This document shows, piece after piece, positions 19,444 to 43,504 of a DNA stretch of 64,000 nucleotides; position 1 is the first letter of the stretch, and every line of letters begins with the position of its first letter. The notes beneath the pieces were generated by a model. It saw nothing but the letters and a program-made list of their open reading frames with translations. It searched no databases and was not told the origin of the DNA. Source of the DNA: a virus; the IMG/VR virus record IMGVR_UViG_3300045988_177228, positions 1-64,000 of that record; one strand, written 5' to 3'. Both the position numbers and the translations under genes were made by a program.

Positions 19444-21135
19444 TCACGCCTTGCGACGAAGCAGCAGGGCGGAAGCGCCAGCCAACAGGACGGTCATCAC
19501 GCCGAAGATGGACAGCCAGACCGCACCGGTCTTCGGCATGTCGGCAATGTTACGGGCGTTGATGACGGTCACACCCAGATGGTCGGCGTTCTCGGAAGCC
19601 AGATTGTTGGCGTCCTTATCGAACTGACTGAGCGTGTAGGAGCCGTTCGATTGGTTCACCTTGATGGTCAGGGTGAACTGCGGCAGGATGGAGCCATTGA
19701 ACGGACTCTTTGTCTCCTTGACCGTGTACTTGCCGTCGAGACCAGTCAGAGTGAGCACGCCATTGCTAGTAGCGACGCTGGTGACGGTGTCGGTGGTGCC
19801 GGTGCTCTCGGTCAGGTCGGCCTTACGGTACGTATTGTCGTTCACCTTGATGAACTTGACCGGAGTGGCGGTCTGGTTGCCCTCGTACACCTTGAACTCA
19901 GCTCCGGCGAGCGGCGCGTTGTTCGTGTCGTGCTTGGTGAGGGTGAACTTGCCGACGTACACCTTGTCGGTCTGGCCCGGAGTGGTCTTATGGTCGGTGA
20001 CAGTGTTCGGGTTGTGGGAGTATTCGACGTTGTTGGTGTTGGTGTCGGCGGTGCCGGAGACGGCGTTCTTGTTCACATACATGTCGTAAGTGACTTTGAC
20101 GGCGGCATCGACCGGGAACTTGGCTTTCATCGCCACGATGTCGGATGCGGTGGTGGAGTCACCGGTGGTCGGAGCGAAGATGATGTGGAACTTGCCATCC
20201 TCAGTAGTGACCTTGTAATCGGTGTCGCGGATGAGGGTCTTACCGTCCACGGTCACGACCATGTTGTCCTTGGCCGCGTCATAGGTCAGGCCCTTGGAAT
20301 ACGTATCGTTGATGGCGTAATAGTACTTGTCGTAGCCAGTCCAGTTCGGCACTTTGCTGGTCATTTCGAAGCTGACCTTCTTGCCGATAGCGGTTTCGGC
20401 GGTCGCGCCACTGTTTTCGACGGTGCCGTTTTCGGCGGCGGTAATCTTCTTCGTGACGGTGGTGCTGTGTACCTTATAGTTCACGGTGCCCAGTGTGTAG
20501 GTCTTGGCGCCGTTCTTCAACATAGTCTTGCCGTCGATGCCAGTGCCGTTGAACATGACGATGGATGCCTCGCCCTTGACGGTGGTGTCCACTACCGCAT
20601 ATACGCCCGGACGGACGGATGCGGTCATGTGCTGGGCGTCGGCGCCCTTGGCGAACGCGGTGCCCTTGTCGCCGGTGACGGCGGTCTCGTTCTTCAACTG
20701 GTCGAGGAAGTCACGAAGCTTGCCAGCCCACGGACTGTTCTCGGAATCAAGCAAGTTCTGTACGACCCACACCATCGGATTGGACGCATTATAGTCGTAT
20801 CCGGCAGTCTGGTCTTTCTTGGACTTGGTGTCGATATTGGCTTTAGTCAATGCGTCAGCGATAGCAGAAGCCTTGCCCGCGTCAATCAAGTCAAAGCCAG
20901 TAATATTAGTACCATCAGTCTGCGCATACGAATAGTAGGCGAGCGGCACAGCCTTCAACGTGCGATTGCTAATATCACCATTAGCAGTGACGGTCAACGT
21001 CTGACGAGCAGCCGCACCAAGCTTGGATGCGTCAACACGAGCATCAGCCGCCATGGCGGAGCCGACTCCAGCCAAACCCATGGCACCGGCCACAAGCGTG
21101 GCGACCGTTGCCTTCAACAGGTTTTTGGTTTTCAC
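19444..21135 (-). CDS. sortase-dependent major pilin (SpaA/FimA-like)
   Basis: Signal peptide. E-box YTVKETKSP. C-terminal MPKTG plus hydrophobic plus RRKA sorting signal. GTG start with ggaaaggaaaac RBS. Confidence 0.8.
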   Translation of the reverse strand: MKTKNLLKATVATLVAGAMGLAGVGSAMAADARVDASKLGAAARQTLTVTANGDISNRTLKAVPLAYYSYAQTDGTNITGFDLIDAGKASAIADALTKANIDTKSKKDQTAGYDYNASNPMVWVVQNLLDSENSPWAGKLRDFLDQLKNETAVTGDKGTAFAKGADAQHMTASVRPGVYAVVDTTVKGEASIVMFNGTGIDGKTMLKNGAKTYTLGTVNYKVHSTTVTKKITAAENGTVENSGATAETAIGKKVSFEMTSKVPNWTGYDKYYYAINDTYSKGLTYDAAKDNMVVTVDGKTLIRDTDYKVTTEDGKFHIIFAPTTGDSTTASDIVAMKAKFPVDAAVKVTYDMYVNKNAVSGTADTNTNNVEYSHNPNTVTDHKTTPGQTDKVYVGKFTLTKHDTNNAPLAGAEFKVYEGNQTATPVKFIKVNDNTYRKADLTESTGTTDTVTSVATSNGVLTLTGLDGKYTVKETKSPFNGSILPQFTLTIKVNQSNGSYTLSQFDKDANNLASENADHLGVTVINARNIADMPKTGAVWLSIFGVMTVLLAGASALLLRRKA

Positions 21136-21317: not shown

Positions 21318-22715
21318 TTAGTTTCCGGACTGTTCGGAACCTTTCCCACCTAGTGCGGAACCGGCGGCATGACCGGCCACCATACTGTTCAGTATGGCTT
21401 TCAAATCGATGCCCAAGGATTGAGACAATCCCTCACTCAACTGGCTCACACTGTTCACCGTGTCGCCCACGAGCTTCGTGCTGTTTCCGTCGCCATACAT
21501 GGTGATGTGGTCTACCTTGGTGAGCGGTTCGGCGGCGGCTCGAACCATGTCGGGGAGAATCTGAATGTACTGTTGGGCGAGGATGTACGTGTTGTTCATC
21601 GAGTTGTACGCCTCGCCCTGAGCGCGGATTGCCTCCGCCTCGCCCACGCCCTTGGCCTGTGCGGCGGAGCCTTCAGCCTTGCCTTTGACCTCGGTCGCGT
21701 GCGCGTCCGCGTCGGCGGTGGATTGGGTGGCCTGAGCCTCCTGCTGGCGTAGATACAGTTCCGCATCCGCATGCTTGCGGGTCGTGTACACTTGCGCGTC
21801 GGCCTGCTGTTCGGCGGCGTATCTGTCGGCGTCGGCCTTCTTGCGGATGGTCGCGTTCAGTTTTTGCTCTTCGATTTCGGCGTTCTTCTGTTCGAGGACT
21901 GCCTTCTTTTCGGCGGCGGCGATTTCCGCCTCCTGCTCCTTGACCTTGAGGGTCTTGGACTGTTCGGCGGCGGTGATGCCCTTCACCGCGTCAGCCTCGG
22001 CCTGCGCCTTGTCGGAGATGGATTGGAGTTCGGCTCGTTTCAGGTCGAGCTGGTTCTGACGGACGGCCACATCCTGTTCCGCGTTGATGGACGCGAGCTT
22101 CGCATTCCGGCTGATTTCGGCGGCCATTTCAGCGCCCATGTTGGCGATGACGTTCTGACGGTCGGTGAAGTCTTGAATGTTGAACGTGGTCAATTGAAGG
22201 CCAAGCCGTTCCATGTCCACGCGGGCGGATTCGGCCACGGTCGCAGCGAACGTGTCCCTGTTCTCCATGAGCTCCTTCAACTCGGTCTTGCCGATGACCT
22301 CGCGCAGCTTGCCCAAAAGCACCTGCGTCACGTCCTTCTCCATGCGCTCCTTGGACTGGTTCAGATAGTTCTTGGCGGCGTTCTCCAACGCCTTCACCTG
22401 TTTACCGTTCTCGTCCACGGTCATGGTCTCGGATGCTATCTGGAAGTTCGCGACGGCGTTCACGTCGATGAGGATTGCGTCCTTCGTCGGAATCGGCGTG
22501 TCGGTTCTCAGGAGCGACTGCACCGCTCCGAGGGAGAGCCAGTCCACGCGCATGATGAACGGTATGATGAACGCGCTTCCGCCGGAGACGAAGCGTCGTC
22601 CGCCCGGCCCGGTGATGACCATGACTCGGTCGGCGGGGCAGACCTTGTAGCTTGCGGTTGCGAGCAGGATGATGAGTATCGCCACTGCCGCGACGATTAT
22701 CAATGTTGTTGGCAT
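21318..22715 (-). CDS. flotillin/SPFH (band-7, YqiK-like) membrane protein
   Basis: N-terminal TM, SPFH domain, long Ala/Glu/Gln-rich coiled-coil. Confidence 0.8.
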   Translation of the reverse strand: MPTTLIIVAAVAILIILLATASYKVCPADRVMVITGPGGRRFVSGGSAFIIPFIMRVDWLSLGAVQSLLRTDTPIPTKDAILIDVNAVANFQIASETMTVDENGKQVKALENAAKNYLNQSKERMEKDVTQVLLGKLREVIGKTELKELMENRDTFAATVAESARVDMERLGLQLTTFNIQDFTDRQNVIANMGAEMAAEISRNAKLASINAEQDVAVRQNQLDLKRAELQSISDKAQAEADAVKGITAAEQSKTLKVKEQEAEIAAAEKKAVLEQKNAEIEEQKLNATIRKKADADRYAAEQQADAQVYTTRKHADAELYLRQQEAQATQSTADADAHATEVKGKAEGSAAQAKGVGEAEAIRAQGEAYNSMNNTYILAQQYIQILPDMVRAAAEPLTKVDHITMYGDGNSTKLVGDTVNSVSQLSEGLSQSLGIDLKAILNSMVAGHAAGSALGGKGSEQSGN

Positions 22716-26801: not shown

Positions 26802-26804
26802 GGT

Positions 26805-27029
26805 TCACGCTTCCATCCAGTGGATGCTTTCGTTAAGGAAGTCTCTGATTTTGCGGAGGGTTTCTATATCTTCGATGGTGATGCTGGTCGCGGTGTCGTC
26901 GTCGGTGATGGTGAACATGAGTTCCTTCCCGAAGCTGGGGGATTGGAGGATTGTGAGTTTGTTGGTTCCCTCGTTGCCGATGACTTGGAGTGCGGATGTG
27001 TTGCCGTTGTCGTATTTGGTTGCGCTCAT
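26805..27029 (-). CDS. hypothetical protein (74 aa), first gene of the minus-strand operon
   Basis: ORF ending 4 nt before the next start. Divergent promoter region upstream. Confidence 0.45.
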   Translation of the reverse strand: MSATKYDNGNTSALQVIGNEGTNKLTILQSPSFGKELMFTITDDDTATSITIEDIETLRKIRDFLNESIHWMEA

Positions 27030-27148
27030 TGTTTCTGTGGTCTTTTCCGTTCCTGTGGAATGTTTTGTGTGGGCGAGGTCAGCTTAACACACTAGGTGGG
27101 GGTATGCAAGCGTTCGGAGATTCGCGGTCGGATGACTTGCGTTCGACT

Positions 27149-27170
27149 ATACCCTTTGTTATACTGGAAA
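27149..27170 (+). promoter_or_regulatory. M1-box copy, plus orientation (ttatactggaaacgtccacaaa)
   Basis: Reverse-complement orientation of the box, 60 nt upstream of ATG 27230. Confidence 0.65.
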
Positions 27171-27229
27171 CGTCCACAAAAAAGGGAGTCGCACACCTCC
27201 CCAACACGCCAGAACAAAAAGAAGAAACC

Positions 27230-27406
27230 ATGAGCAAGCAGACAGAAAACAACATCAACCTGACACTGACACTCATCACAATCGTCAGCGCACTCCTCAT
27301 GTGGAGACAGGATTACGGACACGCGGTAATGGCAACCACCAGCATCACATTCCTACTCAGCTCCGCCGCCCTGCTCGCTCACTTCCTCAACGGATTGGAC
27401 GCCTAA
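27230..27406 (+). CDS. small membrane protein (58 aa)
   Basis: ATG 27230. Two hydrophobic helices. Confidence 0.45.
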   Translation: MSKQTENNINLTLTLITIVSALLMWRQDYGHAVMATTSITFLLSSAALLAHFLNGLDA

Positions 27407-27476
27407 CAAAAAAGAATGCCCCAGCCTGAAAAGACTGGGGCATAGGCATGTCACCACACAGAAAAAGGCAACACAC

Positions 27477-30489: not shown

Positions 30490-31254
30490 ATGAACGAAGG
30501 AACCTATGGGCTGGAGACCCTGAAAGCCGACTATCATACGATACTCGGCTACGATATCGGCTATCTCACCGCGGAATCCTATCCGCTGTTCGCACCCTAT
30601 CGTGCGAAAACCAAGAACAGTTTCTCCGGTAGGGTACCGCGACTGTTGAGCGTAATCATCACCACTCTCGTCAACACGCCAAGCCGCGAATGGGATGCGG
30701 AAACCCGCGCGCTCACCATCGGTGACGACTTCTTCTTCCTCGCCAACAAATGCGGGTTGAACAGTGGAGGAGACGGACGCACTACCGTCCGGAACCAGCT
30801 TCTCATGCTTTCGTCAATCCAGTTCACCGGAGCGGACGGAGTCAAAGTCACGCCGGTCGAACACACCGAAATCACCGCCGACAGTCTCACTATCGAGCAT
30901 CGGAAAATCACGTTCACGGAACCGTTCGTAAAAATGATGACAAGGAACGTCCGGCAGATGCCGTTGAAGTGTCTGTACCCCAACGCGGGTAGCGCCATAG
31001 CGATAGACCTGCTCGCATTGGCGGCATTGTACTGTCCGAACGACCATAGGCTCATCATCGAACGGGCAGACCTTCCATCACTGCTTCCAGCAAGCAGGCA
31101 AAGCCTCTCCAAGCAGAATCTTCTAAATAGATTCAAGGAGTTGAACGACAGTCAGAACGAGTGGACGTATCGTATAACGAAATACAGCGTGACCATCAGC
31201 CCGTTCGGAGTGTACTCGTCCGAAGACGCTTTGAGATTACGTCGCAGACAATAG
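30490..31254 (+). CDS. hypothetical protein (254 aa)
   Basis: taaggagacacaATG RBS. No recognisable motif. Confidence 0.65.
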   Translation: MNEGTYGLETLKADYHTILGYDIGYLTAESYPLFAPYRAKTKNSFSGRVPRLLSVIITTLVNTPSREWDAETRALTIGDDFFFLANKCGLNSGGDGRTTVRNQLLMLSSIQFTGADGVKVTPVEHTEITADSLTIEHRKITFTEPFVKMMTRNVRQMPLKCLYPNAGSAIAIDLLALAALYCPNDHRLIIERADLPSLLPASRQSLSKQNLLNRFKELNDSQNEWTYRITKYSVTISPFGVYSSEDALRLRRRQ

Positions 31255-31267
31255 TTCGAGTATGAAA

Positions 31268-31300
31268 AGAGGGGAGCCGACCGTAAGGCCGACTCCCCTC
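31268..31300. terminator. stem-loop between convergent genes (putative bidirectional terminator)
   Basis: aGAGGGGAGccgaccgtaaggccgaCTCCCCTC. Confidence 0.45.
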
Positions 31301-31320
31301 AATGATGTCGGAATGGGAAC

Positions 31321-32043
31321 TCAGATTTTCAGCTCATCGATAACGGAAAGGTCAACACCGTCACCCCAATTATCGACAATCTTGCTCAGGTTCTTACGCA
31401 TTCCGGCAGGAGACTGGTCGTCAACCGGACGTCCGAAATTCTTCTCCGGCGCGACCGCGTTCAGCACGGAGAACAGCAGGTTGGTCATATCCTTGCCCTG
31501 CGCGAACACCAACGTCACCTCTGCGGCAATCATGCCCGGCTCGGCTGTAGCCAACCCTTCCAACGCGGACGCGAACTCGGAGATTCGACGTTGGTTCTTC
31601 GGCTCGGTCAATGCGTCCAGCACTGCTTCCGGAGTGCTCTTCTTCGTATCGGTCAACGCCTTGGCAAGAGAAACCACACGCTCGTCATCCAACGATTTGA
31701 CAAGAGGAATCAGCTTCTTGCCGAACTGTTCCTCGATGTGCGGCATGGTCTTTTCACGCGGTTTGCGATTAGAACGGCCCTTACCTTTCCCCTTCGGCTT
31801 GTCTTCGGTTTCAGTGGACTCAGCGTCCACGTTCATGTCCTCACCATCAGCCGGTGCGGACACGTCAGCGACAGGCTCCGAACTCTCCTGATTAAGAGAA
31901 TCGGATTCCGTCTGCGACTCCTCGACAGAAGACTGCTCCGGTTCAGCATAATTGTCGGAACCGTAACCATTGTCCTGCTCCGACTGCTGGTTGTTGTTGA
32001 ATCCCCAATTGGTGAAGTCTGGCATCATACCTTCTTTCGTCAT
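31321..32043 (-). CDS. hypothetical protein with highly acidic N-terminal half (240 aa)
   Basis: ORF. N-terminal 80 aa D/E/S-rich, KGKGKGR linker, structured C-terminal domain. Confidence 0.65.
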   Translation of the reverse strand: MTKEGMMPDFTNWGFNNNQQSEQDNGYGSDNYAEPEQSSVEESQTESDSLNQESSEPVADVSAPADGEDMNVDAESTETEDKPKGKGKGRSNRKPREKTMPHIEEQFGKKLIPLVKSLDDERVVSLAKALTDTKKSTPEAVLDALTEPKNQRRISEFASALEGLATAEPGMIAAEVTLVFAQGKDMTNLLFSVLNAVAPEKNFGRPVDDQSPAGMRKNLSKIVDNWGDGVDLSVIDELKI

Positions 32044-32149
32044 ATCCAGCGAACACTCCGGTCGTACAGGCTGTTAACAGTCGGAACGAGGTGTTCTGTA
32101 TTTTCAATTCACGAGTGTAGCGCCCGACGGCATCCCTAAACGGGGAAAA

Positions 32150-32930
32150 CGGGGAAAAACAATTCCCCGCGCCACCCGCGCCGGTAGTTCCAACAGAAAA
32201 GCGGAACCAAAAAGAGTCCCCAACAAATATGAAAAAAGGAACAGCACCCGACCATTATCAGAAAAACCATGAAAACCATCCAGTCCACGCCGGTAGGTCA
32301 ACATGAATAGCAGACTCAAAAAAAGAGAAAAACCAAAAATCAAAAAGACTAAAAGAAAGGAAGCACTACCCACCAAAAATCAGAAAAAGAAACCAAACAC
32401 CATCACACCAAAAAAAGAAGAACCAAGAAAATCAGAAAGAAAAGAAAAACCAAAAGGAAGAAAAGGAGAATATAAGAGAAGCAATCTTAATCAAATAGAA
32501 GCAACAGAAGAACAGGACAATAAAAGAAGAAACACCTACCCCTAAATCGGGAATACAACGTATAGAAGCAACAGAAGCAACGCAACCATCCACCAAAAGA
32601 ACAACATATCAACCCATATGACATACAGGACAGAAGAACAACAGCACCCAACACCCCAAGAAACAAGAAAAGCCAAGCAACAGCACCACAAGGCAACAGG
32701 CCAAGCAACAGCACCAGCACAAACAACAACCAACAGCCACTACAACAACAAAAAAACAACAAAAAGGTCAATAGTCTCACTAACAAGGTCAACGGCAATC
32801 AGAACAAGGTAACATCAATACAGGAACAGCCAATGCAACGAAAAAAGCAACAGCAAAACCAACAAAAAACTAAATATCAAAAAACTATAAATGCCAGAAC
32901 TCGGACAAAACCGTAAACGTTCCGATGAGA
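32150..32930. repeat. ~780-bp low-complexity A/C-rich, G-depleted region (plus strand) between divergent genes
   Basis: Runs of aaaaag/aacaac/caacag. Extreme strand asymmetry unlike the rest of the window. Track ORFs inside are K-rich or Q/T-rich artefacts. Confidence 0.6.
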
Positions 32931-32940
32931 ACAACGGAAC

Positions 32941-34155
32941 ATGACCCATCAGGAGGCGGTCTTATTGGAAAAACGAACGATTTCCCTGATAATCGGCTCC
33001 GGAGGGCTTCTCACAACCATCAAAAAGGCCCTTACGAGAGCCGGAAACATGCGTTGGCAGGTGCCCGCCGCAGACAATATTCAAGCACAGGCCGACTATC
33101 TGGTAAGACATCCGGTGCCCTCCGGGTTCAAAGGAATCATCTTCACCGACAGGGCTGGAAACTGGCTTCCGATAGCCAACGCCGGATACATGGTCTACTG
33201 GTGCAACACCGGTCAGATACCGGTCGGAGCCATGGGCATGAGCGAACAGATGTTACGCATGAGCGTGGCTGATTTTGTACGGACTTATTGGGGAATCCAG
33301 CTTGCGGACAAGCGTCTCGTAGTTGATATCCTCCAAAACAAAGTGAAGGAGACTGCGGTTCTCCTACCCATCACATCCAACACCGGAGGAGTGGGGAAGA
33401 CCACGTCCAGCCGACAGTTGGCAGACCGTGCGTCGCAAGCCGGATTGCGTGTTCTACTCATCGACGGGAACATTCGGCAGTCCAGCCAACGTAGTTTTTT
33501 CGACCCGAGACAGGACAAGCCATTGCATACGATAGCCGACTGGCGACCGGGCATGCAGGTGCAGGTCGGGGCCAATCGAGGACGTGACCTTGGGGTTCCA
33601 TACGACATCTGTTTCGCACCTCCAGCAGGCGTCGGAGTGGACTGGCAGATATACCGTCAGTACATCCAAGCGGCACGCCGACTGTGGGATTTCGTCGTGC
33701 TCGACCTTGACCGAATCAGCGCGGACGATTTGGATGATAGGGAGAATATCGCCAACGGTTTACTGCTTCCATACATTCAATCGGGAGACCCTTGTCTGGT
33801 TATCGTCAAGGCTGGAAGGCAGACGCAGATTGACGCGTTGAATCTGCTGACGGCATTGGCGGAACATCATCTTCCGAAGGAACTCATCGGCATCAAGGAC
33901 ACCGTTCCGGTCGGATTGCAAGGTTACAGACGACTCGACTATACGAGATACGGAACGTTTCTCGGGACCGAATATCAGACGGTCGAGGCAAGCAACCATA
34001 TCGCCAACGGTGATGTCAGATGGGATGACCCCGGTCTTGCTTTTGCTAGGGAGAACATTCTTAACTGGGCTTTGCCCGACCGTGGTTTCAATCCGGAAAG
34101 ATTCAATCCGAACGCTAAGAACAGTGAAGGAAAGAAAGGTCGTGGGCGTAAGTGA
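32941..34155 (+). CDS. ParA/MinD-like P-loop ATPase with N-terminal extension (CpaE/TadZ-like)
   Basis: Deviant Walker A ITSNTGGVGKTTSS, LLIDGN Walker A'-like, FVVLDLD Walker B. Confidence 0.7.
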   Translation: MTHQEAVLLEKRTISLIIGSGGLLTTIKKALTRAGNMRWQVPAADNIQAQADYLVRHPVPSGFKGIIFTDRAGNWLPIANAGYMVYWCNTGQIPVGAMGMSEQMLRMSVADFVRTYWGIQLADKRLVVDILQNKVKETAVLLPITSNTGGVGKTTSSRQLADRASQAGLRVLLIDGNIRQSSQRSFFDPRQDKPLHTIADWRPGMQVQVGANRGRDLGVPYDICFAPPAGVGVDWQIYRQYIQAARRLWDFVVLDLDRISADDLDDRENIANGLLLPYIQSGDPCLVIVKAGRQTQIDALNLLTALAEHHLPKELIGIKDTVPVGLQGYRRLDYTRYGTFLGTEYQTVEASNHIANGDVRWDDPGLAFARENILNWALPDRGFNPERFNPNAKNSEGKKGRGRK

Positions 34156-35348
34156 CATTCGATGACCGTTTTCTTTTCGACCCGAACGACGAGAATCTTT
34201 GGAAGACCGGAAGCATTGCCGACTGGTATAAAGGCAACGACATGTTCGAGATGGAGCATCCCGGATTGTTCGCGCAGACCCACCCGTGGTTCGTTGCGAA
34301 CAAACTGTTCGCGGAGACAATGGTGAAAGCGAACAGCGAACTCGTTTCGAGTATCCTCGGCGCATTGTTCACTTGGAAGACATGCACGGTTGACCAACTA
34401 CGTGCGGGACTTTCCATCAAAGGCGCTCCCGCTTTCGAGCGTGACGAACCGAACCTGTATGGTGCGATGAACCGTTTGGGAATCATCAACGTCGGTTTCA
34501 GTCAGGCGGAACGATTGTACGGTCAGACCGTGAATCATGTTTGGCTTTCACCGTCGAACAGTCCACGTCTTATCAACCGTGCGATGAAATTGTACGGGAT
34601 GGAAAAGTGGATGCGTGAGACGATGGCGGTTTCCTATTACGCGGGGAATCGTTTCCATGTTCGGCATAACACTTATGCGGCGCACGCGGGATTGATGTTG
34701 GCACGCGATTCACGTGTGAAATTCTCATCCGGTGATGGTTGGGGAAAATTCCGTAGTGTTGACCCACAGGCTGTTGCCGAGTCGAAGGTCGGCAAGGCTT
34801 GCGCGACCGACGTGGTGACGTTGTGCCGGAACAATGTGTTGGCGGGTATCGAAATCCAAACGTCGAACAGCGAATTGGATAAGAAGATGCAGAACTGGGC
34901 TAAGATGCTCGCCTATTCTCCGATGAAGCGTCGCGGACTCATCTGCGTATGGTTGCAGATACCGAAGGCAAACGAAGGTTACGAATCGTTCAACGCGGTG
35001 ATACAACGCACGCAAGGCATGACGGAAATGGTCGTGGGCAATCCTACCGTGTCGCAACGAATGGGAATCGCGGTCTGGGATGAATGGTTCGAGCATGGGA
35101 TGCCGACCGACAGGTTCGGTGACTATACGGATATGAGTGGAACACGGCGCAACATTTTCTCCGACGAGTGGGCGCAATACACTCCGCAGGTTCGTGACGT
35201 TCGCAAAGTCAGCGAATGGGGTTGGGACGTGACGCGAGACATCATAAAGAAGGATTGGGGTTGGGATGTTTCCGGTTGGACAATGCCGGAAGCGTACCGT
35301 GGCGGTTTCTACGGTTTCATTGGAAAGGATTGCGATGGTCTCCACTGA
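34152..35348 (+). CDS. hypothetical protein (398 aa)
   Basis: ATGA overlap with previous gene. No confident motif. No HUH relaxase triad recognised. Confidence 0.65.
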   Translation: MTFDDRFLFDPNDENLWKTGSIADWYKGNDMFEMEHPGLFAQTHPWFVANKLFAETMVKANSELVSSILGALFTWKTCTVDQLRAGLSIKGAPAFERDEPNLYGAMNRLGIINVGFSQAERLYGQTVNHVWLSPSNSPRLINRAMKLYGMEKWMRETMAVSYYAGNRFHVRHNTYAAHAGLMLARDSRVKFSSGDGWGKFRSVDPQAVAESKVGKACATDVVTLCRNNVLAGIEIQTSNSELDKKMQNWAKMLAYSPMKRRGLICVWLQIPKANEGYESFNAVIQRTQGMTEMVVGNPTVSQRMGIAVWDEWFEHGMPTDRFGDYTDMSGTRRNIFSDEWAQYTPQVRDVRKVSEWGWDVTRDIIKKDWGWDVSGWTMPEAYRGGFYGFIGKDCDGLH

Positions 35349-35800: not shown

Positions 35801-38461
35801 ATGGGTAATCCGAACTGGTATCAGATAACCAGAACGTTGCAACAGTTAGACCCGGACGAGCAACGTTCGAAAATGGAAAGCATTCCAGCCGAACTGGATG
35901 GTTGCACCCTTCTCCTCATCAAGAAGGGCGAGGAGCCGGTCAAGGAATATATTTACGGTGACGGCGAGGGAATCGTCAACGCCGGACAGTTGGCTGGTTT
36001 TGACGCGAGACTGGTCGAAGATGATGAGGAACCGGTGTTGCCGGATGGCGTGAACAGTGCGGCACATCCTCTTGTACCATTCCGCGCCCGGTTGAACTCG
36101 AAAAGCAACATGGAGAAAATGCGGACGAACTATTCCGGCGTTCGTACAAGTATCGAAAAAGTCATGCCGCCGGACAGTTACGTGAGCATCACCCTTCGCA
36201 ATCAGGGATACTTCGAGCAGATTCGTATTCGCAATTGGATTAGCGACGAATACAATGCGGTGGAGGATTCAAGCGAACTCGCTTCAACCAACACGATGTG
36301 CGCCCGTGTGAGTTTCGGTTGCCGTCAGGCTTCCCGTAACCGACAGCTTGCGCAGAAGATTGGTCAAATCATCTGTCCGCTCATGTCCAACATGTCCAGT
36401 CATGCGAGCCGTCCGAAGTTCGGGTTGCTGTTCGTCAGCATGCTGTTGGAAGTGTTGTCCGTGATTTGGAGCGTGTGCGGTCTTGCAAGAGGATACGTGA
36501 TGGATGGGATTTTCCCATTATTCCATTCCGCTTGGGGTTTCGGAATCGCACTTCCACTGCTTGCTGTGACGTTGGTCGTGTTCCTGTTCCTCATGCTGTT
36601 GTCGTGCATTCCGTTCGTTTACATTCCAAGACCTCAGATTGCCGGTGGCTCGGTGGCGCTCATGCTTTACCTGCTGTTGGGGTTGCTTCCGCTACCGACA
36701 TTCATTCCTGTTCTTTTCGTTCCTCTTCTTGTATTCGCGTTCATCCGTTGGAAGAATTGGACGTTGTGGGATGACATTTTCCAAACGCCACGCAGATATT
36801 ATGCGATTGCGAACGACCGTGGCGCGAACGAGTCCGATAATCAGACCCGTCTTGGCGTGCGAACTCATAAGGAGCGCGTGTCGGCTTATGGTGCGCAACG
36901 TACCACGTTGATTCTTTCCCCGATTATCGTAAGTTCCGTGTTCACTCCGGTCACTCAGGGAGTGGCGATGAAACAGGAGTTACATCCGGTTCCGGAAGTA
37001 TTGTCGCATGATGGAATCTTCCTCGGGAAAGACGATACGGGACGTAACTGTTATCTCGACCCGTCGCAATTGTTCGGCGGCATCGCCATCAACGGCGAAG
37101 CCGGTTCTGGTAAGACCGTGCTCACCCATGGCATCAGCCAGTGGGCAATCAGCGCACGAGAAACCACCAGTCCGAAAATCTGGGGACACGACTCCCGTAT
37201 CATCCATTTTTGGATGAAGGATGATACCGGTGTTAACGTGTTGGAACGTTACCGCAAACGTCACGGTTTCACCAGTCCGCAGCGAGTCGTCTACTTGGCA
37301 GACCCGAACAGCGTGTGCTTGGACATGTTTGGCATGAAGGATGGGAACAATGCGATGGAGACTGCGGCGAGCGTGGCGAAGACAATGCGCTACTCGTTCG
37401 ATGACGGTGATATTCTGAACGACTCGCAGAACATCATCACCCAAGCGTTGACCATCGGCGTGGCAGTTGACCGTTACGTGCAGGAGGAACGCAAGCATAA
37501 TCCTGAATCCGCGAACAAGGATTGGGAAAGCGAGATTGTGAAACGTTGCCACCAGCTCGAACAATCGTATCCGGGTGCGGAACAGTTGCGAATGCAGTTG
37601 AGTCCAATCGGATGGGCCGTCGTCGCATTATGCGGTTCCGACGGTCAGGCCGGTTCCGCGAAAGCGTTGGGCCATGTGTGCCGCGCGTTGAGCATGGAGT
37701 TGAAGAGTGGCTACATGTTCGAGGAGATGACGCATGCGGCTCGTGCGGCTGAACAATTGTATGGCCGTCCGGACGCGGCTGGTCATACGGTTCGTTCCGA
37801 CCGTGACATTCTTGCGAAGACGAACGCTTCGTTGAACAAGGTGAACCAGTTCCTTCCCATCGAACACATGTTCACGGCACGTCGCGGCAAGGTGACTTGG
37901 ACGAACATTCTCGACCATGCGGGTGATTATCACATTGTGCTCGCACCGCATAACGGGTATTCGTTGCCGGAACGTATGGATAAGATTCTCGGCGGCTGGC
38001 TCATGTACCGTTTCTGGAATACGGTGTTCGCGCATTGCAAGGATTGGGACAAGGCTGGCAAGTGGACGATGCTCGTGTGTGACGAGTTGAGCCTGTTGGC
38101 TAACGGCAATGATGGCATTATGCCCGCGTTGCGTGAGCAGGGTCGTTCGTTCGGTCTGCTTCTCGTGTTCGCCACCCAGTATCCGACCCAGTTGTCCGAC
38201 GCGATGTTGGATTCGTTCATCGGCTATTCGACGTTCATTACATACAATACGACGATTCCGCGTATTGCCGATATGACGGCGAAACGTTTGACGAACAATG
38301 ACGGGGAGGATGGTTGGCGTTCAGGTGCGGTCATGAATCTTCCACGTTATGCGGCGGCTGTTCGCACTCGAACCCAAGAACAGTTGCAGCCGACGTTCCT
38401 TGTTCATGTGAACGATTTCGATAACGGTTATCGCAATGGTGACATGGATAATGATGACTAG
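35801..38461 (+). CDS. membrane-anchored FtsK/HerA/VirD4-superfamily ATPase (putative conjugative coupling protein / DNA translocase)
   Basis: aaggaaggtaaaacATG. About 5 TM helices at residues ~200-330. Walker A GEAGSGKT, Walker B MLVCDELS, GRSFGLLLVFATQYPTQL (FtsK/VirB4-like ATQ motif). Confidence 0.75.
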   Translation: MGNPNWYQITRTLQQLDPDEQRSKMESIPAELDGCTLLLIKKGEEPVKEYIYGDGEGIVNAGQLAGFDARLVEDDEEPVLPDGVNSAAHPLVPFRARLNSKSNMEKMRTNYSGVRTSIEKVMPPDSYVSITLRNQGYFEQIRIRNWISDEYNAVEDSSELASTNTMCARVSFGCRQASRNRQLAQKIGQIICPLMSNMSSHASRPKFGLLFVSMLLEVLSVIWSVCGLARGYVMDGIFPLFHSAWGFGIALPLLAVTLVVFLFLMLLSCIPFVYIPRPQIAGGSVALMLYLLLGLLPLPTFIPVLFVPLLVFAFIRWKNWTLWDDIFQTPRRYYAIANDRGANESDNQTRLGVRTHKERVSAYGAQRTTLILSPIIVSSVFTPVTQGVAMKQELHPVPEVLSHDGIFLGKDDTGRNCYLDPSQLFGGIAINGEAGSGKTVLTHGISQWAISARETTSPKIWGHDSRIIHFWMKDDTGVNVLERYRKRHGFTSPQRVVYLADPNSVCLDMFGMKDGNNAMETAASVAKTMRYSFDDGDILNDSQNIITQALTIGVAVDRYVQEERKHNPESANKDWESEIVKRCHQLEQSYPGAEQLRMQLSPIGWAVVALCGSDGQAGSAKALGHVCRALSMELKSGYMFEEMTHAARAAEQLYGRPDAAGHTVRSDRDILAKTNASLNKVNQFLPIEHMFTARRGKVTWTNILDHAGDYHIVLAPHNGYSLPERMDKILGGWLMYRFWNTVFAHCKDWDKAGKWTMLVCDELSLLANGNDGIMPALREQGRSFGLLLVFATQYPTQLSDAMLDSFIGYSTFITYNTTIPRIADMTAKRLTNNDGEDGWRSGAVMNLPRYAAAVRTRTQEQLQPTFLVHVNDFDNGYRNGDMDNDD

Positions 38462-38627
38462 CTTTTAGCGTTCATCATATTGCTTTTCAGAATCCGTTCG
38501 GAACTTTCAACTTCCGGACGGATTTTTTATACCTAAAAACCTCGCTACGACTGGAAACAACCGCGTAGGTTGATAGGATGAAAAATGCAGGAGAGTTCCG
38601 TTTGGAAAACGAAAGGGAACTCAAAAA

Positions 38628-38972
38628 ATGGGTGGAACCATTACCTTGGCTGGAAGCAGCCTTGAGAGCACCTATCATAAGATGTTCGACACCATTTTGA
38701 GCAGTAGCGCAGGAACCGTGTTGACCAACATCGGTCTTGCCGCAGCAGTGCTTCTCGCACTCGGCCTTATCGTCGGTAGCATTTGCAAGGCATTGGGACG
38801 CCAAAACAAGCTCGTGCAGATGTTCTGCCCGAACATCGGACGTATTCTCGTCGTCCTCGCAGTCGGATTCATTCTCGCTGGCCCGACCTTCACCATTCCG
38901 GCAATTCTTAAGTTGATTGACTGGTTCGTTGACGCGGTTGGCGGCAGTGGAAAGACCTATCTGGGAATCTGA
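38628..38972 (+). CDS. small membrane protein, possible T4SS pilin-like (VirB2/TrbC-type)
   Basis: aaagggaactcaaaaaATG. Two long hydrophobic helices. Followed by a strong hairpin. Confidence 0.45.
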   Translation: MGGTITLAGSSLESTYHKMFDTILSSSAGTVLTNIGLAAAVLLALGLIVGSICKALGRQNKLVQMFCPNIGRILVVLAVGFILAGPTFTIPAILKLIDWFVDAVGGSGKTYLGI

Positions 38973-38985
38973 CATCCGCAGAAGG

Positions 38986-39048
38986 AAAACCGGAGTGGAT
39001 ATGCGAAGAGGACCTTTCCGGTTCTGTTCCCACTCCGGTTTTCTTTTA
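38986..39048 (+). terminator. long hairpin (attenuator/terminator) after the pilin-like gene
   Basis: AAAACCGGAGTGG ... CCACTCCGGTTTT followed by CTTTT. Confidence 0.45.
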
Positions 39049-39077
39049 AGAACCTTACGTACGAAAAGAGTTGAATC

Positions 39078-39500
39078 ATGAGCGATGAGGAAGACGAAGG
39101 ATACAAAGGCCCCTTGCATCCGAGGTTGACGATGGACGACATCACGGAAGTGTCCGGCCCGGAGGAAATCGAACGGAAGAACACGTTCCAGATAACCAAG
39201 AACACTGAGGCCCGTTCCAAAACCGTGTTCTCCGTTATCGTCGGCGCATTGGCGGGCTTGGCTCTTTGCCTCATATTCGCCCCGTTGCTCGGATACATGT
39301 TCAGCTCGTTCTTCGTACTGTTGGGCGGAATACTGGCTCCGTTCTTCGCAGTCGGCACCATTAGAGACCGCACCCAACAGACACGGTGGAAGAGAACCTT
39401 GCAGGATATGAAGAGCCGCAAGATTGAAGGGCAGGTCTTCTACCCGAATTCCACTCAGCCGGAAAACATTATCGACCTTCAAGAAATGGAAATCCGTTGA
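39078..39500 (+). CDS. membrane protein (140 aa)
   Basis: aagagttgaatcATG. Acidic N-terminus then two TM helices. Confidence 0.5.
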   Translation: MSDEEDEGYKGPLHPRLTMDDITEVSGPEEIERKNTFQITKNTEARSKTVFSVIVGALAGLALCLIFAPLLGYMFSSFFVLLGGILAPFFAVGTIRDRTQQTRWKRTLQDMKSRKIEGQVFYPNSTQPENIIDLQEMEIR

Positions 39501-42500
39501 ATACAAAATATCGAGACCCAGTGAAACGGGCGGGTAGAAGGAACCTGCTCGTCATTCTGATGTTGTGCGTGGTCATGACATTGTTCGTCTTGCCGTCCAG
39601 CGTGTTCGCCGCACAGGTCAACGATTCGACCACGACGATAACATGCGCCAACGGCGGGACTGACAGTGCTACATCAGACATCTCTAGTTGTCTTCCTTCC
39701 GGACGTTGGGGAAACTACGTTGGGGAAATCACTTCGCGTACGGAACCGTACAGTGGCAGCGATGTCGCCGGTTGGTTCTCGAACGTCAAGCAGACCATCA
39801 GCTCGCAGACCCATATCGTCCTTCCCAACATTCTGATGCAGTTGACTCAGGTCTGCTGGTCTTCCGCATTGTCCATCAGCCAGTTCGCCGCTTCGTTCGA
39901 ACCGATGAAACAGGCTGGTGCGAACATCGACTCCGCAGTGTCCACCATGGTGACGAGTCTGATGGACGGTGGTATCCCCGCCACCATCGCAGTGCTCGGC
40001 ATCGTGGCTTGGGTTGGCGCGGCTGGATTCCAAATCGGCACCGTCAAAGAGGCGAGCAAACGAATCGTCATCATGGTTCTCTGCTTCGCTTCAATCACGA
40101 TGCTTGGAGCTGGAGCGGCCAAAACCGGAAAGAACGCCACAGAACCGGCGACCGGAAGCCCATGGTGGGTCGTGCAGACAATCAACAACACCATCAACAA
40201 GCTTTCGGTCAACCTCGACCTTGACGGCATGGCAGACAGTGATAAAAACATGATGTCCTACCATCATGCGGCGAACGGTGCGAAAACCAATTGTCAGGAT
40301 TACCTGTACTTCATGCATCAGGCGTATGACGAACAGGCGAAGTCCAACGGCAATCAGGATACAAGCAACGTCACCAAGGCCATCAACCGTATTTGGGAGG
40401 AGACCTCTCTTCGCTCGTTCGTGACCATGCAGTACGGAAACCCGCAGACCACCGGAACATCCTCGTTCCGTATCGCGGAAAACGCTCGGCAAGGTTACTG
40501 CCACGTGTTGGAGATGAAAGCCAACACGAACACGACCATCCAGAAGGATTTGACCAACAAGGCCATGGCGTTGCACATCAGCGACCAGCGAGCCAAATGG
40601 TTGTTCTCCGTGGACGGTTGGGTAGACCCGCGTAATCCTTACTTCACCGACAAACCGTTGGAAAGGGAGAACGCGACATATCTCAGCCGTGCGGGCGTGT
40701 TCTGGGAAACCTGTGGCACGAAACGCAATCAGGAAATCTACGCGCGAGCCGGATGGGCGACACTCATCAACAACCTCGGTGACACAGGAACCAAGAACAT
40801 CAAGAACGGCAGTACGAAAGTACGTGTCAAGATTGACGACTTGGACAATGTGAAACCGACCAACGGTGGCAAAGGCGTGATGGACGCGAAACAAAACGGC
40901 AGTGAAGACGAAACCATCCAACAGACCACTTCGGTCTGCCAGACGATTCTCAAACAGGGTTCCGTAATCTTCTCCCGTTCCACCGATATCAACAAGGAGG
41001 ATGACGGAACATATAAAGACCAGCAGAACGACACCAACTGGGGCGACTCCGCTACGGTCGGATGGCGTTTCGACGTGCCGAACGTTTCCGGAACTTGGAG
41101 TGAGGCGAATCTTCGTGACGCTCAGGATGATTCCACTGTCACGGGCGGTGCGAAGAAAACCATCGACTACATGTATGGCAACAACAACGTCGATACGTTG
41201 GGTGCTTGCGGAACACTTATCGGAGGCATCGTCAATCTCGTGGTCTGGGGATTGTTGAGCCTTGTTCTAATACTGACGAAGCTCATGCTGATAATGATGG
41301 CGTTGTTCCTCGTGGTCACGTTCCTTGTCCAAGCGTTCCCGATTGGCGAGAAGCCGAAGAACGCGTTGAAGAACTGGGCGACGTACACCTGCCAGTTGAG
41401 TATGGTAGGAGCGTTGTACGGTGCGCTCGGTACTCTCGCAACATTCATTTGTGGCCTGACGTTGAAGTTCACCTCTGCCAGCAGTGGTTCGTTCACCTAC
41501 CAGTTGATTGCGGGATTGAGTCCGGTGTTGGCTCTCGCCGCAATCGGCATGTTCTGTTCGAAAGTGTTGAAGTGTGGTAATCCGTTCAGCGTCAACGCTC
41601 TGATGGGCATGGCGGGTGGAACCGCAATGGCGTCCGGTCTTCGCAAGGGAATGCACATGATTGGACAGTACCGTATGATTCGCGCCATGCGTGGCGGATT
41701 CCGTCGTGGCGGCAATGGTGTCGGACGTTTGTCCACGAACGGTACCGGCGCTGGCATGGCCCATAACGGAGCACGTCAAAGCGAGACTGTCCTAAGCAAG
41801 ATGAGCCGCGCGCAACAGGATTCGTTGAGTCAGGGCGATAGGAATCTGATGAATCGTAACGCCAAGGAGTTCGAGGCGATTCAGACGCGTGGACGCGGAA
41901 GCAAGAACTGGGCACGAATGGACAAGAGCACGGTGAGAGGAAGTCTTGCCGGTGCGAAACTCCATTTTGAGGATTCCACGGGCAAGTTCAAGGGACGGTT
42001 GAACAAAGCCGTTTCCAAGTTCCATGGCGAGGACAATACGGAGGCGTTCGCCCATAGTATCGCCCAACGTCACCCGGGCATGTCCCTCAACGATGTGCAA
42101 CGCAAAGCGCAAAGGATGAACCATCTGAACAATGCCGGACGCAAACTCCAAGGTGCGGCAAGAGTCGCCGGAGCCGGAGCCGCAATGGCCGGTGCTGGTC
42201 TCGCTTTCGCCGCACGAGCCGCGAAGAGCGCTCCTTTGCGTAACGTAGCCGCACGCGGAGCGAAGGTCGCCGCGAAAGCCGCTGTCGCAGGAGCTTTGTT
42301 CTCCAATCCGATTACCGCACCGTTGGGATTGATTGCCGCAGGAAAGCTGGCTGCCGACCGTAACCTCCATCATGGTCTAGCGGTGGGTGCGGGAGCCGCG
42401 ATGGATAAAATCCGCGACATCAGGAACGCTGCTCCCGGCAGTATGAGAGAACGCGACCAGTGGCGTCGCGACGTGTTGGGCATGGCTAATGGTGACGCTC

Positions 42501-43504
42501 CGTTGTCGTCTCCGTTCTCCGGCGCCGGTGACGGTGGTTCCGACAATGGTAACAGTCCTATGCCTTCTCCGTCGGCTCCGAATCCGGATGTCCCAACCCA
42601 AACCGGTGGTGTCGGTGGCGCGTCCCCGATTCCGACGGACGCGCAGACCGAGACGATTCCGATTGGCGCTCCGACTGGTCCGATTCCAGCGGACGCCCAA
42701 GGACAGCAGACTCCGGTGTTGACTGAACAGTCCGCGTTCAATCAGGTTCGTGAGGGAATGATGGCAGACTTCACGAATAACCAGCACATGTCTCAAGAGG
42801 ATGCGGAACAGGCTTTCCAAGAAGCCGTGGCCTCCGGTGAAGTCGATGATTCTGTCCAAGCGTATATGAGCCAGAACAATCAATCTCCTATCGAGAATGT
42901 GACGGCTCAACCTGAGATGAATGCCAATCAGCCGGTGTACAACACTGAGACAGGTGAGATTGTTGGTGAGACCCTACCCTCCGGGACGATGGACGCCGCC
43001 GTGTCCTCCGCCTCCACTTGGCAGAAGGCAACCGACAATGCGACTCCGATGCCTGAATCGGTGAACAATTCACTGCAACAGGCGTACATGCGCGAGAATC
43101 CGGTACAGCAGTCTCCGGAGGAACATTTGCGGATGGCGCAGGAGGAGTGGACTAGGACGACTGGTCTTCCGAGCGATATGATGCCTGCGAGTGCGGAACG
43201 TGCCATGAATCCGAATGGAATTCAGCCGAGTAGAGAATTCACGGTTGATTCCGGTCAGACGCAACAGCAGGGTTCGGTACAGGCGCAAGCTCCGCGACAG
43301 CAGTCTCAACCGCAGCCACAAGCTCAGGTGAGGCAGCAGCCGTCGGTTCGAATGCAACCGCCAACCACACCGTCACCGACCGTCAAACAGCCAGTGGACG
43401 CCAACCCGTCAAACCTGACAGGTTTCCCCTCCGTAGGCAATCTTCACATGAAGAAACCGCCGACCGGAGGACAGCCGACACCCAAACCGCCGTTCATGAA
43501 GTGA
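39497..43504 (+). CDS. 1335-aa polytopic membrane protein with Pro/Gln-rich C-terminal tail (VirB6/TrbL/TcpH-like candidate)
   Basis: ATGA overlap with previous gene. Signal peptide. Many TM helices in two clusters. Ala-rich and PQ-rich low-complexity C-terminus. Confidence 0.7.
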   Translation: MNTKYRDPVKRAGRRNLLVILMLCVVMTLFVLPSSVFAAQVNDSTTTITCANGGTDSATSDISSCLPSGRWGNYVGEITSRTEPYSGSDVAGWFSNVKQTISSQTHIVLPNILMQLTQVCWSSALSISQFAASFEPMKQAGANIDSAVSTMVTSLMDGGIPATIAVLGIVAWVGAAGFQIGTVKEASKRIVIMVLCFASITMLGAGAAKTGKNATEPATGSPWWVVQTINNTINKLSVNLDLDGMADSDKNMMSYHHAANGAKTNCQDYLYFMHQAYDEQAKSNGNQDTSNVTKAINRIWEETSLRSFVTMQYGNPQTTGTSSFRIAENARQGYCHVLEMKANTNTTIQKDLTNKAMALHISDQRAKWLFSVDGWVDPRNPYFTDKPLERENATYLSRAGVFWETCGTKRNQEIYARAGWATLINNLGDTGTKNIKNGSTKVRVKIDDLDNVKPTNGGKGVMDAKQNGSEDETIQQTTSVCQTILKQGSVIFSRSTDINKEDDGTYKDQQNDTNWGDSATVGWRFDVPNVSGTWSEANLRDAQDDSTVTGGAKKTIDYMYGNNNVDTLGACGTLIGGIVNLVVWGLLSLVLILTKLMLIMMALFLVVTFLVQAFPIGEKPKNALKNWATYTCQLSMVGALYGALGTLATFICGLTLKFTSASSGSFTYQLIAGLSPVLALAAIGMFCSKVLKCGNPFSVNALMGMAGGTAMASGLRKGMHMIGQYRMIRAMRGGFRRGGNGVGRLSTNGTGAGMAHNGARQSETVLSKMSRAQQDSLSQGDRNLMNRNAKEFEAIQTRGRGSKNWARMDKSTVRGSLAGAKLHFEDSTGKFKGRLNKAVSKFHGEDNTEAFAHSIAQRHPGMSLNDVQRKAQRMNHLNNAGRKLQGAARVAGAGAAMAGAGLAFAARAAKSAPLRNVAARGAKVAAKAAVAGALFSNPITAPLGLIAAGKLAADRNLHHGLAVGAGAAMDKIRDIRNAAPGSMRERDQWRRDVLGMANGDAPLSSPFSGAGDGGSDNGNSPMPSPSAPNPDVPTQTGGVGGASPIPTDAQTETIPIGAPTGPIPADAQGQQTPVLTEQSAFNQVREGMMADFTNNQHMSQEDAEQAFQEAVASGEVDDSVQAYMSQNNQSPIENVTAQPEMNANQPVYNTETGEIVGETLPSGTMDAAVSSASTWQKATDNATPMPESVNNSLQQAYMRENPVQQSPEEHLRMAQEEWTRTTGLPSDMMPASAERAMNPNGIQPSREFTVDSGQTQQQGSVQAQAPRQQSQPQPQAQVRQQPSVRMQPPTTPSPTVKQPVDANPSNLTGFPSVGNLHMKKPPTGGQPTPKPPFMK

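Follow-up and report, generated by a model that had tools for sequence, protein, structure and literature searches.

The stretch of DNA analyzed here, referred to as the window, comprises 64,000 nucleotides (positions 1 to 64,000 of the IMG/VR record IMGVR_UViG_3300045988_177228). At the locus of interest, a gap of 897 bp separates the starts of two divergently oriented genes (Table 1). The one on the minus strand could not be assigned a function; it is syntenic in most relatives of the plasmid, with the exception of Bifidobacterium callitrichidarum (locus L008), where it is swapped for another gene. The one on the plus strand encodes a ParA/MinD-like ATPase, whose further weak matches were to CpaE/Ssd and to proteins of the tyrosine-kinase type. 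It is followed by genes for a 398-aa protein (gene 2), a 169-aa protein, an 886-aa ATPase, and a 1335-aa protein, the last of which weakly matches the CD3337/EF1877 (VirB6-like) family of mobilome membrane proteins. As the ParA-like gene opens this block, the intergenic region does lie immediately upstream of the transfer genes, as stated in the first-pass annotation of the window. In the megaplasmid pMP7017, a run of co-oriented genes of ∼30 kb also begins with the ParA-like gene. A second, more canonical ParA gene is present in the window at 43963–44859.

Homologs of the ParA-like protein were found in Bifidobacterium and in contigs of 170–220 kb from the human gut; identity was 57% for pMP7017 of B. 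breve JCM 7017 and for megaplasmids of B. longum. The window also contains 14 copies (0.03 expected) of a promoter motif described as specific to the pMP7017 plasmid family, members of which occur in roughly one tenth of B. longum strains (PMC10832533). Homology of the ParA-like protein, together with the 14 promoter motifs, identifies the window as part of a conjugative megaplasmid belonging, as a diverged member, to the pMP7017 family. When plasmid and phage collections were searched with the window for near-identical DNA, no match was obtained, nor was any when genome contigs were scanned with a single-protein query; scanning them with a profile yielded two orthologs only. pMP7017 is described as conjugative, and we know of no conjugative plasmids in Bifidobacterium besides megaplasmids of this type. 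The transcriptome paper on pMP7017, including its supplement, contains neither a mention of the locus nor a table of transcription start sites or promoters for it. No report of an origin of transfer (oriT) or a relaxase of pMP7017-type megaplasmids was found in the accessible literature on the family, which also makes no mention of the region described here.

Table 1. Coordinates of genes and sequence features at the locus (window positions).
Feature	Position	Strand	Basis or remark
Divergent 240-aa gene, function unassigned	31321..32043	-	No Pfam, PHROG, NCBIfam, or PDB match
Conserved left block, normal composition (T.28), 5' region of the divergent gene	32044..32118		9% variable columns
T-depleted, A-rich tract, predicted to be structure-free	32119..32870	+	Maximal-segment scan
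Tandem AAACGGGGA, 2.3 copies	32138..32158	+	Tandem Repeats Finder
GC-rich direct repeats CCCCGCGCCA / CCCGCGCCGG	32165..32184	+	Exact 10-mer unique in the window
Module copy 1, GCCGGTAGTTCC-N11-AGCGGAACC, A-rich tract directly after	32180..32208	+	
Module copy 2, GCCGGTAGGTC...AGCAGACTC	32289..32317	+	
A/G-rich proximal half: A.61, C.17, G.15, T.07	32321..32540	+	
A/C-rich distal half, rich in GCAAC: A.51, C.31, G.13, T.05	32541..32765	+	
Three AAGGTMA direct repeats, starts 32764, 32785, 32806 (21-bp spacing)	32764..32815	+	Conserved among close variants
Conserved CTATAAAT block within ...CTAAAnCAG...	32885..32892	+	
Hairpin GTTCCG...CGGAAC, ends at the start codon, covers a weak Shine-Dalgarno	32919..32940	+	Minimum-free-energy fold
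ParA/MinD-like ATPase with N-terminal extension, opens the transfer block	32941..34155	+	CbiA/AAA_31 P-loop matches
398-aa gene 2, modeled winged helix and PD-(D/E)xK nuclease, candidate relaxase-like	34152..35348	+	
Downstream transfer genes: 886-aa ATPase and 1335-aa protein	35801..43504	+	

Composition and anatomy of the intergenic region

A low-complexity tract of marked strand asymmetry had been noted between the divergent starts, and a maximal-segment scan for T depletion on the plus strand bore this out. The tract (A 51%, C 26%, G 16%, T 8%) reached a score of 61, whereas the runner-up segment on the plus strand scored 18 and the top segment in 30 shuffles of the window 10.8; it is therefore T-depleted above all other segments of the window by a wide margin. 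The top A-depleted segment of the window, scoring 37.8, lies within a flotillin gene. AT skew over the tract (0.70–0.76) is the maximum of the window, whereas GC skew goes no further than −0.4. Within 32150–32930, the plus strand consists of A.511, C.248, G.154, and T.087, compared with A.239, C.259, G.271, and T.232 for the whole window, which is indeed balanced and high in GC (53%). The asymmetry is genuine and far beyond chance. The earlier description as A/C-rich is accurate (A and C together make up 76%), but its emphasis on very little G is not, T being rarer than G; “A-rich and T-depleted” fits better than “G-poor”. That the plasmid's intergenic regions share this trait could be rejected, as the gap, with an AT skew of 0.65, is the sole case among the 38 intergenic gaps of the window.

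At the left end of the region, −10-like hexamers occur on both strands (TACACT, 32114–32119, minus; TATTTT, 32099–32104, plus), which may serve as promoter elements; by eye, a TAnnnT hexamer on the minus strand recurs in six lineages. The GC-rich direct repeats that follow are present in two to four copies in related lineages, and CGCGCC is strongly over-represented (15 found versus 1.1 expected, in 8 of 11 lineages). The exact sequence GCCGGTRGKTC has only two sites in the 64 kb, namely, in module copy 1 and at 32289. Across lineages, the module can be written as two to four direct copies of CCCGCGCCG, then GCCGGTRGKTYC-N8-12-AGCGGAMC, then a run of A. A TATAGT hexamer is found just 5' of the GC block in B. 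callitrichidarum, and TATACT at the same place in locus L075.

Tandem repeats of the tract are short and weak only. The order of its two halves, C-poor followed by C-rich, is found in about 8 of 12 lineages; GCAAC is enriched (46 found versus 16 expected across 11 lineages), and TCAGAA is likewise over-represented in the tracts. The third AAGGTMA repeat overlaps a −10-like TAACAT (32810–32815), and TAWYAT recurs in six lineages; the repeats and the hexamer are a putative operator and promoter, respectively. At the start of the tract, a potential hairpin (GGTTCC-N11-GGAACC) was considered, in which 63% of the cells pair, but its covariation score was reached by 23 of 500 shuffles, and RNAalifold, applied to the lineages, predicted no structure there. 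By eye, changes in this hairpin seemed compensatory in loci L003, L008, and L086.

Conserved composition and rapid turnover of sequence

About 70 orthologous loci were gathered, with identities of the ParA-like protein from 100% down to 43% (Pseudoscardovia suis). A T-poor tract of 235–860 nt is present upstream of the ParA-like gene, on its sense strand, in all lineages. The content of T is 3–8% and that of purines 64–71%, the exception being B. callitrichidarum L008 with 11% T. A and G are exchanged between lineages (A.51 and G.13 in Pseudoscardovia, A.34 and G.34 in locus L086), with T remaining low throughout; C exceeds G in the tract of most lineages, L086 having G equal to or above C. 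In pMP7017, the tract is again the top non-coding asymmetric segment (14–62 kb searched), and no comparable upstream tract was found at distant ParA-like loci of other phyla. Despite this uniformity of composition, the primary sequence of the tract cannot be aligned between lineages. It is thus a property, rather than a sequence, that appears to be conserved, which suggests selection on strand composition over hundreds of non-coding bases.

At every orthologous locus, the GC-rich repeat module directly precedes the left edge of the tract. At loci L075, L086, and L008, 235–430 nt of ordinary sequence lie between the tract and the start of the ParA-like gene; the constant neighbor of the tract is, therefore, the module and not the start codon. 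In B. callitrichidarum, module and tract stay with the ParA-like gene despite the replaced divergent neighbor.

Among close variants, the region changes rapidly. The intergenic length varies between 819 and 1014 bp in 21 plasmids whose ParA-like proteins are 94–100% identical. Whereas ∼100 bp at the left end and ∼180 bp at the right end hardly differ between these plasmids (7–12% variable columns), the bins in the middle contain 13–65% variable columns per 100 bp, even in the 17 closest plasmids (98–100% identical). A total of 91 distinct indel blocks was counted among the 21 variants, mostly of 1–8 nt and in homopolymer or short-repeat contexts, with larger deletions occurring between direct repeats; loci L032, L037, and L042 carry a natural deletion exactly between both copies of CGCCGGTAG. 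The module is kept by all deletion variants, and composition is constant in the close variants despite the fast change in sequence and length. Variability among near-identical plasmids, which the first-pass annotation had raised as an argument against a function in transfer, thus applies to sequence and length, but not to presence, polarity, or composition.

Two mutational origins of the asymmetry were considered and set aside. Adenine mutagenesis of the diversity-generating retroelement type, via the plasmid's reverse transcriptase, was rejected because the variants differ by many indels and, as judged by eye, by substitutions of all kinds. A skew linked to replication is unlikely; the leading strand is usually G/T-rich, yet the plus strand of the tract, which would be the leading-strand sequence if, as we infer for the pMP7017 operon, it is co-directional with the fork, is A/C-rich.

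Folding, signal avoidance, and known classes of element

The earlier suggestion that the asymmetry is associated with single strands agrees with the predicted folding. Windows of 150 nt on the plus strand of the tract fold with only −0.3 to −10 kcal/mol, compared with a mean of −42.4 ± 9.4 for the whole window, and the eight least-structured plus-strand windows in the 64 kb are all inside the tract. The plus strand is, therefore, nearly unfoldable, whereas the G/T-rich minus strand folds two- to fourfold more strongly; this difference between the strands is common to 10 of 12 lineages. Signals for gene expression are avoided as well. Relative to a strand-symmetric random sequence of equal GC content, NTG start codons on the plus strand are depleted ∼7-fold (4 versus 29 expected) and −10-like TANNNT hexamers ∼8-fold (2 versus 17 expected; 8 are found on the minus strand), and no terminator-like site was found on the plus strand inside the tract. 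That this property is confined to one strand over hundreds of bases, also in lineages whose tract is not rich in AT, points to a role in single-stranded form, be it RNA or DNA, and speaks against a binding site in duplex DNA. The tract probably works as an unfolded single strand.

ORFs of 64–103 aa are present on both strands of the tract, and PGAP annotates one of 91 aa in the tract of pMP7017. All of them, as had been proposed for those of the window, are judged artifacts of a strand devoid of stop codons: only 15 of the 91 indel blocks are multiples of three (76 are not), a period-3 signal is lacking, and the ORFs are not conserved between lineages. The Rfam 15 covariance models gave no match at E ≤ 1 over 31000–34000. 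A G-quadruplex or i-motif, proposed in the first-pass annotation, is not supported, as the three-tetrad pattern (four runs of at least three G or C) is absent on both strands; the same holds for a locus resembling clt of Streptomyces, whose 8-bp TraB recognition sequence GACCCGGA does not occur on either strand with up to one mismatch. No consistent spectral peak at 10–11 bp, as expected for helically phased A-tracts in curved DNA, was found in 11 lineages.

The repeat search revealed no iterons, and visual inspection no DnaA boxes. In pMP7017, experiments have located the origin at the repB iterons near 120 kb, with a skew switch marking the terminus at 37 kb (PMC8313286). As the tract locus is located at 52–53 kb in pMP7017, the tract is not the replication origin. 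A partition locus of type Ib has direct repeats upstream of parA and a gene for a small centromere-binding protein downstream; three AAGGTMA repeats are indeed found upstream of the ParA-like gene, but the next gene encodes the nuclease-like protein of 398 aa.

With respect to Rho utilization (rut) sites, the tract is likewise untranslated, unstructured, and poor in start codons, and C exceeds G in most lineages. However, it is about two-thirds purine, U-poor, and far longer than a rut site, and its RNA would be purine-rich; with a density of YC dinucleotides (0.091) below that of the window (0.13), it does not qualify as a typical site for the loading of Rho. Of the 12-nt ops element recognized by RfaH (GGCGGTAGnnTG), only the core CGGTAG is shared by the tract region, and this is variable between lineages. 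A tblastn search for a NusG paralog, using RfaH and NusG sequences as queries against the window and pMP7017 (14–62 kb), gave no match.

Candidate functions of the tract

The tract is best read as the variable core of a control region of ∼900 bp that heads the transfer gene block of the megaplasmid. The reading ranked first, although we give it somewhat less than an even chance, is that of a long, unstructured, and untranslated 5' leader, or transcribed spacer, of the transfer operon. Such a leader would stretch from the conserved GC-rich repeat module toward the ParA-like gene, and selection would act on its bulk composition, not on its sequence. An A-rich RNA poor in U would offer no A-U pairing, intrinsic terminators, start or stop codons, or −10-like hexamers, so that RNA polymerase, coming from a distal promoter or regulatory module, could travel through several hundred bases while the transcript neither folds nor is spuriously translated and while transcription is neither initiated internally nor terminated. 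At the end of this passage, the message would offer a structured ribosome-binding site preceded by a long single-stranded standby region. A U-poor composition is a solution that the plasmid's short leaders may also use: in the pooled 5' UTRs following the 14 family-type promoters, base composition (A.50, C.20, G.19, T.12) equals that of the tract, the latter being 10–20 times longer than the other leaders of the plasmid. We infer transcription through the tract, the position of its promoter, and the use of the leader (in standby, stability, or attenuation) from these features.

Long leaders are a known kind of element. Like those of conjugative tra and polysaccharide operons with processive antitermination, or those involved in ribosome standby, the tract is an untranslated sequence at the head of a block of co-oriented genes; it is predicted to remain single-stranded, and a structured ribosome-binding site comes after it. 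It differs in being defined by composition instead of sequence, and no ops-like element passed the test. Several further observations speak against a leader: no promoter was found at the left end of the tract by a sigma-70 scan of the window; if the conserved −10-like TAWYAT downstream of the tract were the sole promoter, the tract would be outside the mRNA; and neither the absence of an Rfam match and of covarying structure nor the gaps between tract and gene at loci L075, L086, and L008 are in its favor.

A further confounding factor is that the composition fits equally well, on the minus strand, the T-rich style of a promoter-upstream region of the divergent 240-aa gene. Pooled in sense orientation, the 90 nt upstream of the 14 family promoters consist of T.39, G.27, C.19, and A.15, and the tract, read on its minus strand, of T.51, G.26, C.16, and A.08. 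The leader is nevertheless favored over an element of the divergent gene because B. callitrichidarum L008 keeps the tract although its divergent gene is replaced, because TATAGT or TATACT is present by the GC block, and because T depletion reaches beyond the candidate proximal −10 into the proximal UTR beside the start codon.

The second reading, possible but unlikely, places an oriT at the locus, with the GC-rich module as the binding site or nick region of a relaxosome and the tract as an associated single strand. The structure-free strand might be the zone where helicase or coupling protein is loaded onto ssDNA, or the stretch transferred first or last, and would be selected against hairpins. 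oriT regions are a known kind of element too, and the position between divergent genes heading the DNA-processing and T4SS genes is a classic one. The protein encoded by gene 2 matched no relaxase profile, no Pfam, NCBIfam, or PHROG family, and no PDB sequence, but its model combines, with moderate fold scores, an N-terminal winged helix with a PD-(D/E)xK domain, the layout of MOBC relaxases. The invariant residues D220, E234-x-Q236, and K245 are located on or beside consecutive strands and the following helix of the model, and can be read as a canonical PD-(D/E)xK core of the BglII-like D...ExQ variant. The MOBC relaxase TraX of pAD1 is reported to carry a winged helix in front of a catalytic domain of the restriction-endonuclease-like type and to bind direct repeats located 70–120 bp from its nick site (PMC12857230). 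As it matched no relaxase profile, gene 2 is a candidate for a relaxase-like DNA-processing protein, not an assigned member of the class.

The genomic context is compatible with this role. Distant homologs of gene 2 (21–23% identity) on megaplasmids of Micrococcales are encoded directly after a T4SS coupling-protein gene, which is consistent with a function in DNA processing. In PLSDB, plasmids of both the pMP7017 type and the Micrococcales are typed as non-mobilizable, and MOB-suite finds no relaxase in the former despite the description of pMP7017 as conjugative. On pACHL01, the unannotated gap upstream of the gene pair for coupling protein and gene 2 homolog contains strand-asymmetric tracts as well, one of 696 nt depleted of A (A.04), then one of 299 nt depleted of T; the locus of a Glaciihabitans plasmid has no such tract. 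Anchoring of the tract to the module, instead of the ParA-like start, as well as the specificity of the module for the locus and its retention in all deletion variants, would also be expected of a relaxosome site. CCGGTRG as a family-wide recognition motif was rejected, however, since it is not enriched in the loci of Micrococcales plasmids.

Comparison with the oriT regions of MOBC systems (pAD1 with TraX, CloDF13 with MobC) leads to a similarly mixed result. The region is likewise intergenic and situated just upstream of the gene for a nuclease, albeit a candidate one, and direct repeats (the GC-rich 9-mers and AAGGTMA at 21 bp) lie some way from a possible inverted repeat. What distinguishes gene 2 from the MOBC relaxases is the missing match to a relaxase profile, and the locus yielded neither a nick consensus, nor a convincing nick-site hairpin, nor a robust inverted repeat. 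We know of no oriT, of the MOBC class or otherwise, with a T-free or T-depleted tract of several hundred bases. The link to an oriT proposed in the first-pass annotation is, therefore, plausible in terms of context (fold of gene 2, neighboring coupling-protein genes), but not supported by a nick site, and a transcribed leader, which was not considered there, fits at least as well. Both readings are not mutually exclusive because oriT regions commonly overlap promoters and leaders.

The most elaborate version of the oriT reading is rather improbable. The tract would be a “runway” defined by composition, free of T so that one strand never folds, and anchored to the oriT/relaxosome module, with an unrecognized winged-helix and PD-(D/E)xK enzyme as the relaxase; it would provide naked ssDNA for the loading of helicase or coupling protein or for the threading of the transferred strand, and might simultaneously be a leader lacking U and therefore out of reach of terminators, nucleases, and ribosomes. 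The overdrive of Agrobacterium, a possible analog, also combines a gene for a ParA/MinD-like ATPase with a strand-asymmetric (keto- or amino-rich) cis sequence at a transfer locus. Overdrive is ∼24 bp long, has a defined core, and is bound by the ParA-like VirC1; in contrast, the tract comprises hundreds of bases without a conserved core, and no VirC2-like partner was identified.

About equally improbable is a passive spacer whose simplicity is maintained by slippage during replication and which would serve solely for distance or insulation between the divergent promoters. Continual duplication and deletion of short A-rich motifs would have passed its composition on, and selection, if any, may have been directed solely against accidental promoters. 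Like cryptically simple DNA, the tract is of low complexity, contains numerous short indels, and differs in length between near-identical plasmids; the prevalence of homopolymer and short-repeat contexts among the 91 indel blocks, the weakness of its tandem repeats, the lack of conserved primary sequence, and the depletion of −10-like hexamers on both strands are all in line with slippage. Unlike cryptically simple DNA, however, it is anchored to a module, and polarity, T depletion, and purine content persist in deeply diverged lineages, where the flanking proteins are only 43–57% identical. With a C content of 25–34%, mutation of C to T should have restored T, and deletion bias should purge useless DNA, yet at least 190 nt are kept in every lineage. 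The order of an A/G-rich followed by an A/C-rich half in most lineages, and the fact that no other intergenic region of the window is alike, are not expected of a spacer either. Slippage, thus, accounts for the turnover, but not for the deep conservation of polarity and T avoidance.

An oversized promoter-upstream element of the divergent gene, T-rich on the sense strand of that gene, is very unlikely. It is suggested by the T-rich sequences upstream of the 14 family promoters, but none of these reaches 100 nt, and terminator tails make up part of them. Moreover, the tract persists at L008, where the divergent gene is missing, and the A-tracts lack helical phasing; to our knowledge, 250–750 bp is also far beyond any UP element. 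Finally, the few stop codons, the ORFs on both strands including that annotated by PGAP, and the relative AT richness could be taken for a gene encoding a low-complexity protein rich in Lys, Glu, Gln, and Thr, or for a plasmid replication origin, both of which are scarcely credible in view of the indel lengths, the missing periodicity, the unconserved ORFs, the absence of iterons, and the distance from the mapped origin.

As far as can be told, a family-conserved, hypervariable tract of several hundred bases that is defined by avoidance of T alone has not been described. A constraint on composition of this kind escapes conservation scans that are based on alignment. For the pMP7017 family, one region of ∼900 bp and one adjacent gene are singled out as the candidate oriT and relaxase of Bifidobacterium megaplasmids, the mapping of which becomes directly testable. 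As Bifidobacterium is a genus difficult to manipulate, this may lead to the design of mobilizable vectors for these organisms.

Gene orientation and promoter motif copies

Gene orientation across the window switches at 26802-27476: nearly all genes to the left lie on the minus strand and nearly all genes to the right on the plus strand, the 240-aa gene adjoining the T-depleted tract being an isolated exception. The promoter motif of the pMP7017 family, TATACTGGAAWYGTYCACA, occurs 14 times in the window (0.03 expected by chance), and each copy is preceded by T-rich sequence and followed by an A-rich, T-poor leader. None of these 14 copies belongs to the operon headed by the ParA-like gene.

Other features of the window
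Feature	Position	Strand	Remark
Promoter motif copies	193-211, 660-678, 2071-2089, 2571-2589, 3718-3736, 4059-4077, 5070-5088, 6008-6026, 6475-6493	-	
Promoter motif copies	27160-27178, 51328-51346, 54976-54994, 56906-56924, 60281-60299	+	
Reverse-transcriptase domain (RVT_1) ORF	9855-11084	-	409 aa
Surface-structure cluster	13031-21135	-	
Flotillin/SPFH gene	21318-22715		beside surface-structure cluster
Canonical ParA gene	43963-44859	+	adjoins RepA_C-family gene
151-aa gene	44890-45345	+	adjoins RepA_C-family gene
RepA_C-family replication protein gene	45454-46323	-	
Gap	46324-46991		668 bp; by RepA_C-family gene
IS200/IS605-type TnpB (OrfB_IS605 + Cas12f1-like TNB)	48491-49753	+	
Protein with GmrSD-type endonuclease C-terminal domain	49779-50804	+	after TnpB

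The surface-structure cluster encodes a sortase, a pilin backbone protein and a protein of 1796 aa in which RCC1-like repeats are combined with SdrD B-like and SpaA domains. The RepA_C-family gene is located beside the canonical ParA and 151-aa genes, a gene order that departs from that of pMP7017, in which repA lies at 96-97 kb.

Strand-asymmetric segments and probably spurious reading frames

By strand asymmetry, the region encoding the flotillin coiled coil ranks second in the window. In pMP7017, the RefSeq (PGAP) annotation places a "hypothetical protein" of 91 aa (WP_172685975.1) inside the T-depleted tract, on its T-rich strand, at 53034-53309 of the plasmid record (5351-5626 of locus L007); this ORF is almost certainly an artefact of the lack of stop codons. 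In the Micrococcales megaplasmid pACHL01 (NC_011879; locus L103), the unannotated gap 5' of the coupling-protein gene contains an A-depleted tract (2007-2702, 696 nt, A fraction.04) followed by a T-depleted one (2840-3138, 299 nt), so that strand asymmetry flips polarity near 2750. The ORFs within this gap look spurious.

A candidate relaxase gene

Second in the transfer operon is a gene (34152-35348) that received no family assignment. A confident structure prediction for its product comprises a winged helix and a PD-(D/E)xK nuclease, and invariant D...ExQ residues are present. Distant homologs in Micrococcales megaplasmids directly follow T4SS coupling-protein genes. According to typing tools, pMP7017-type plasmids are non-mobilizable; this second gene is a candidate for their unrecognised relaxase.
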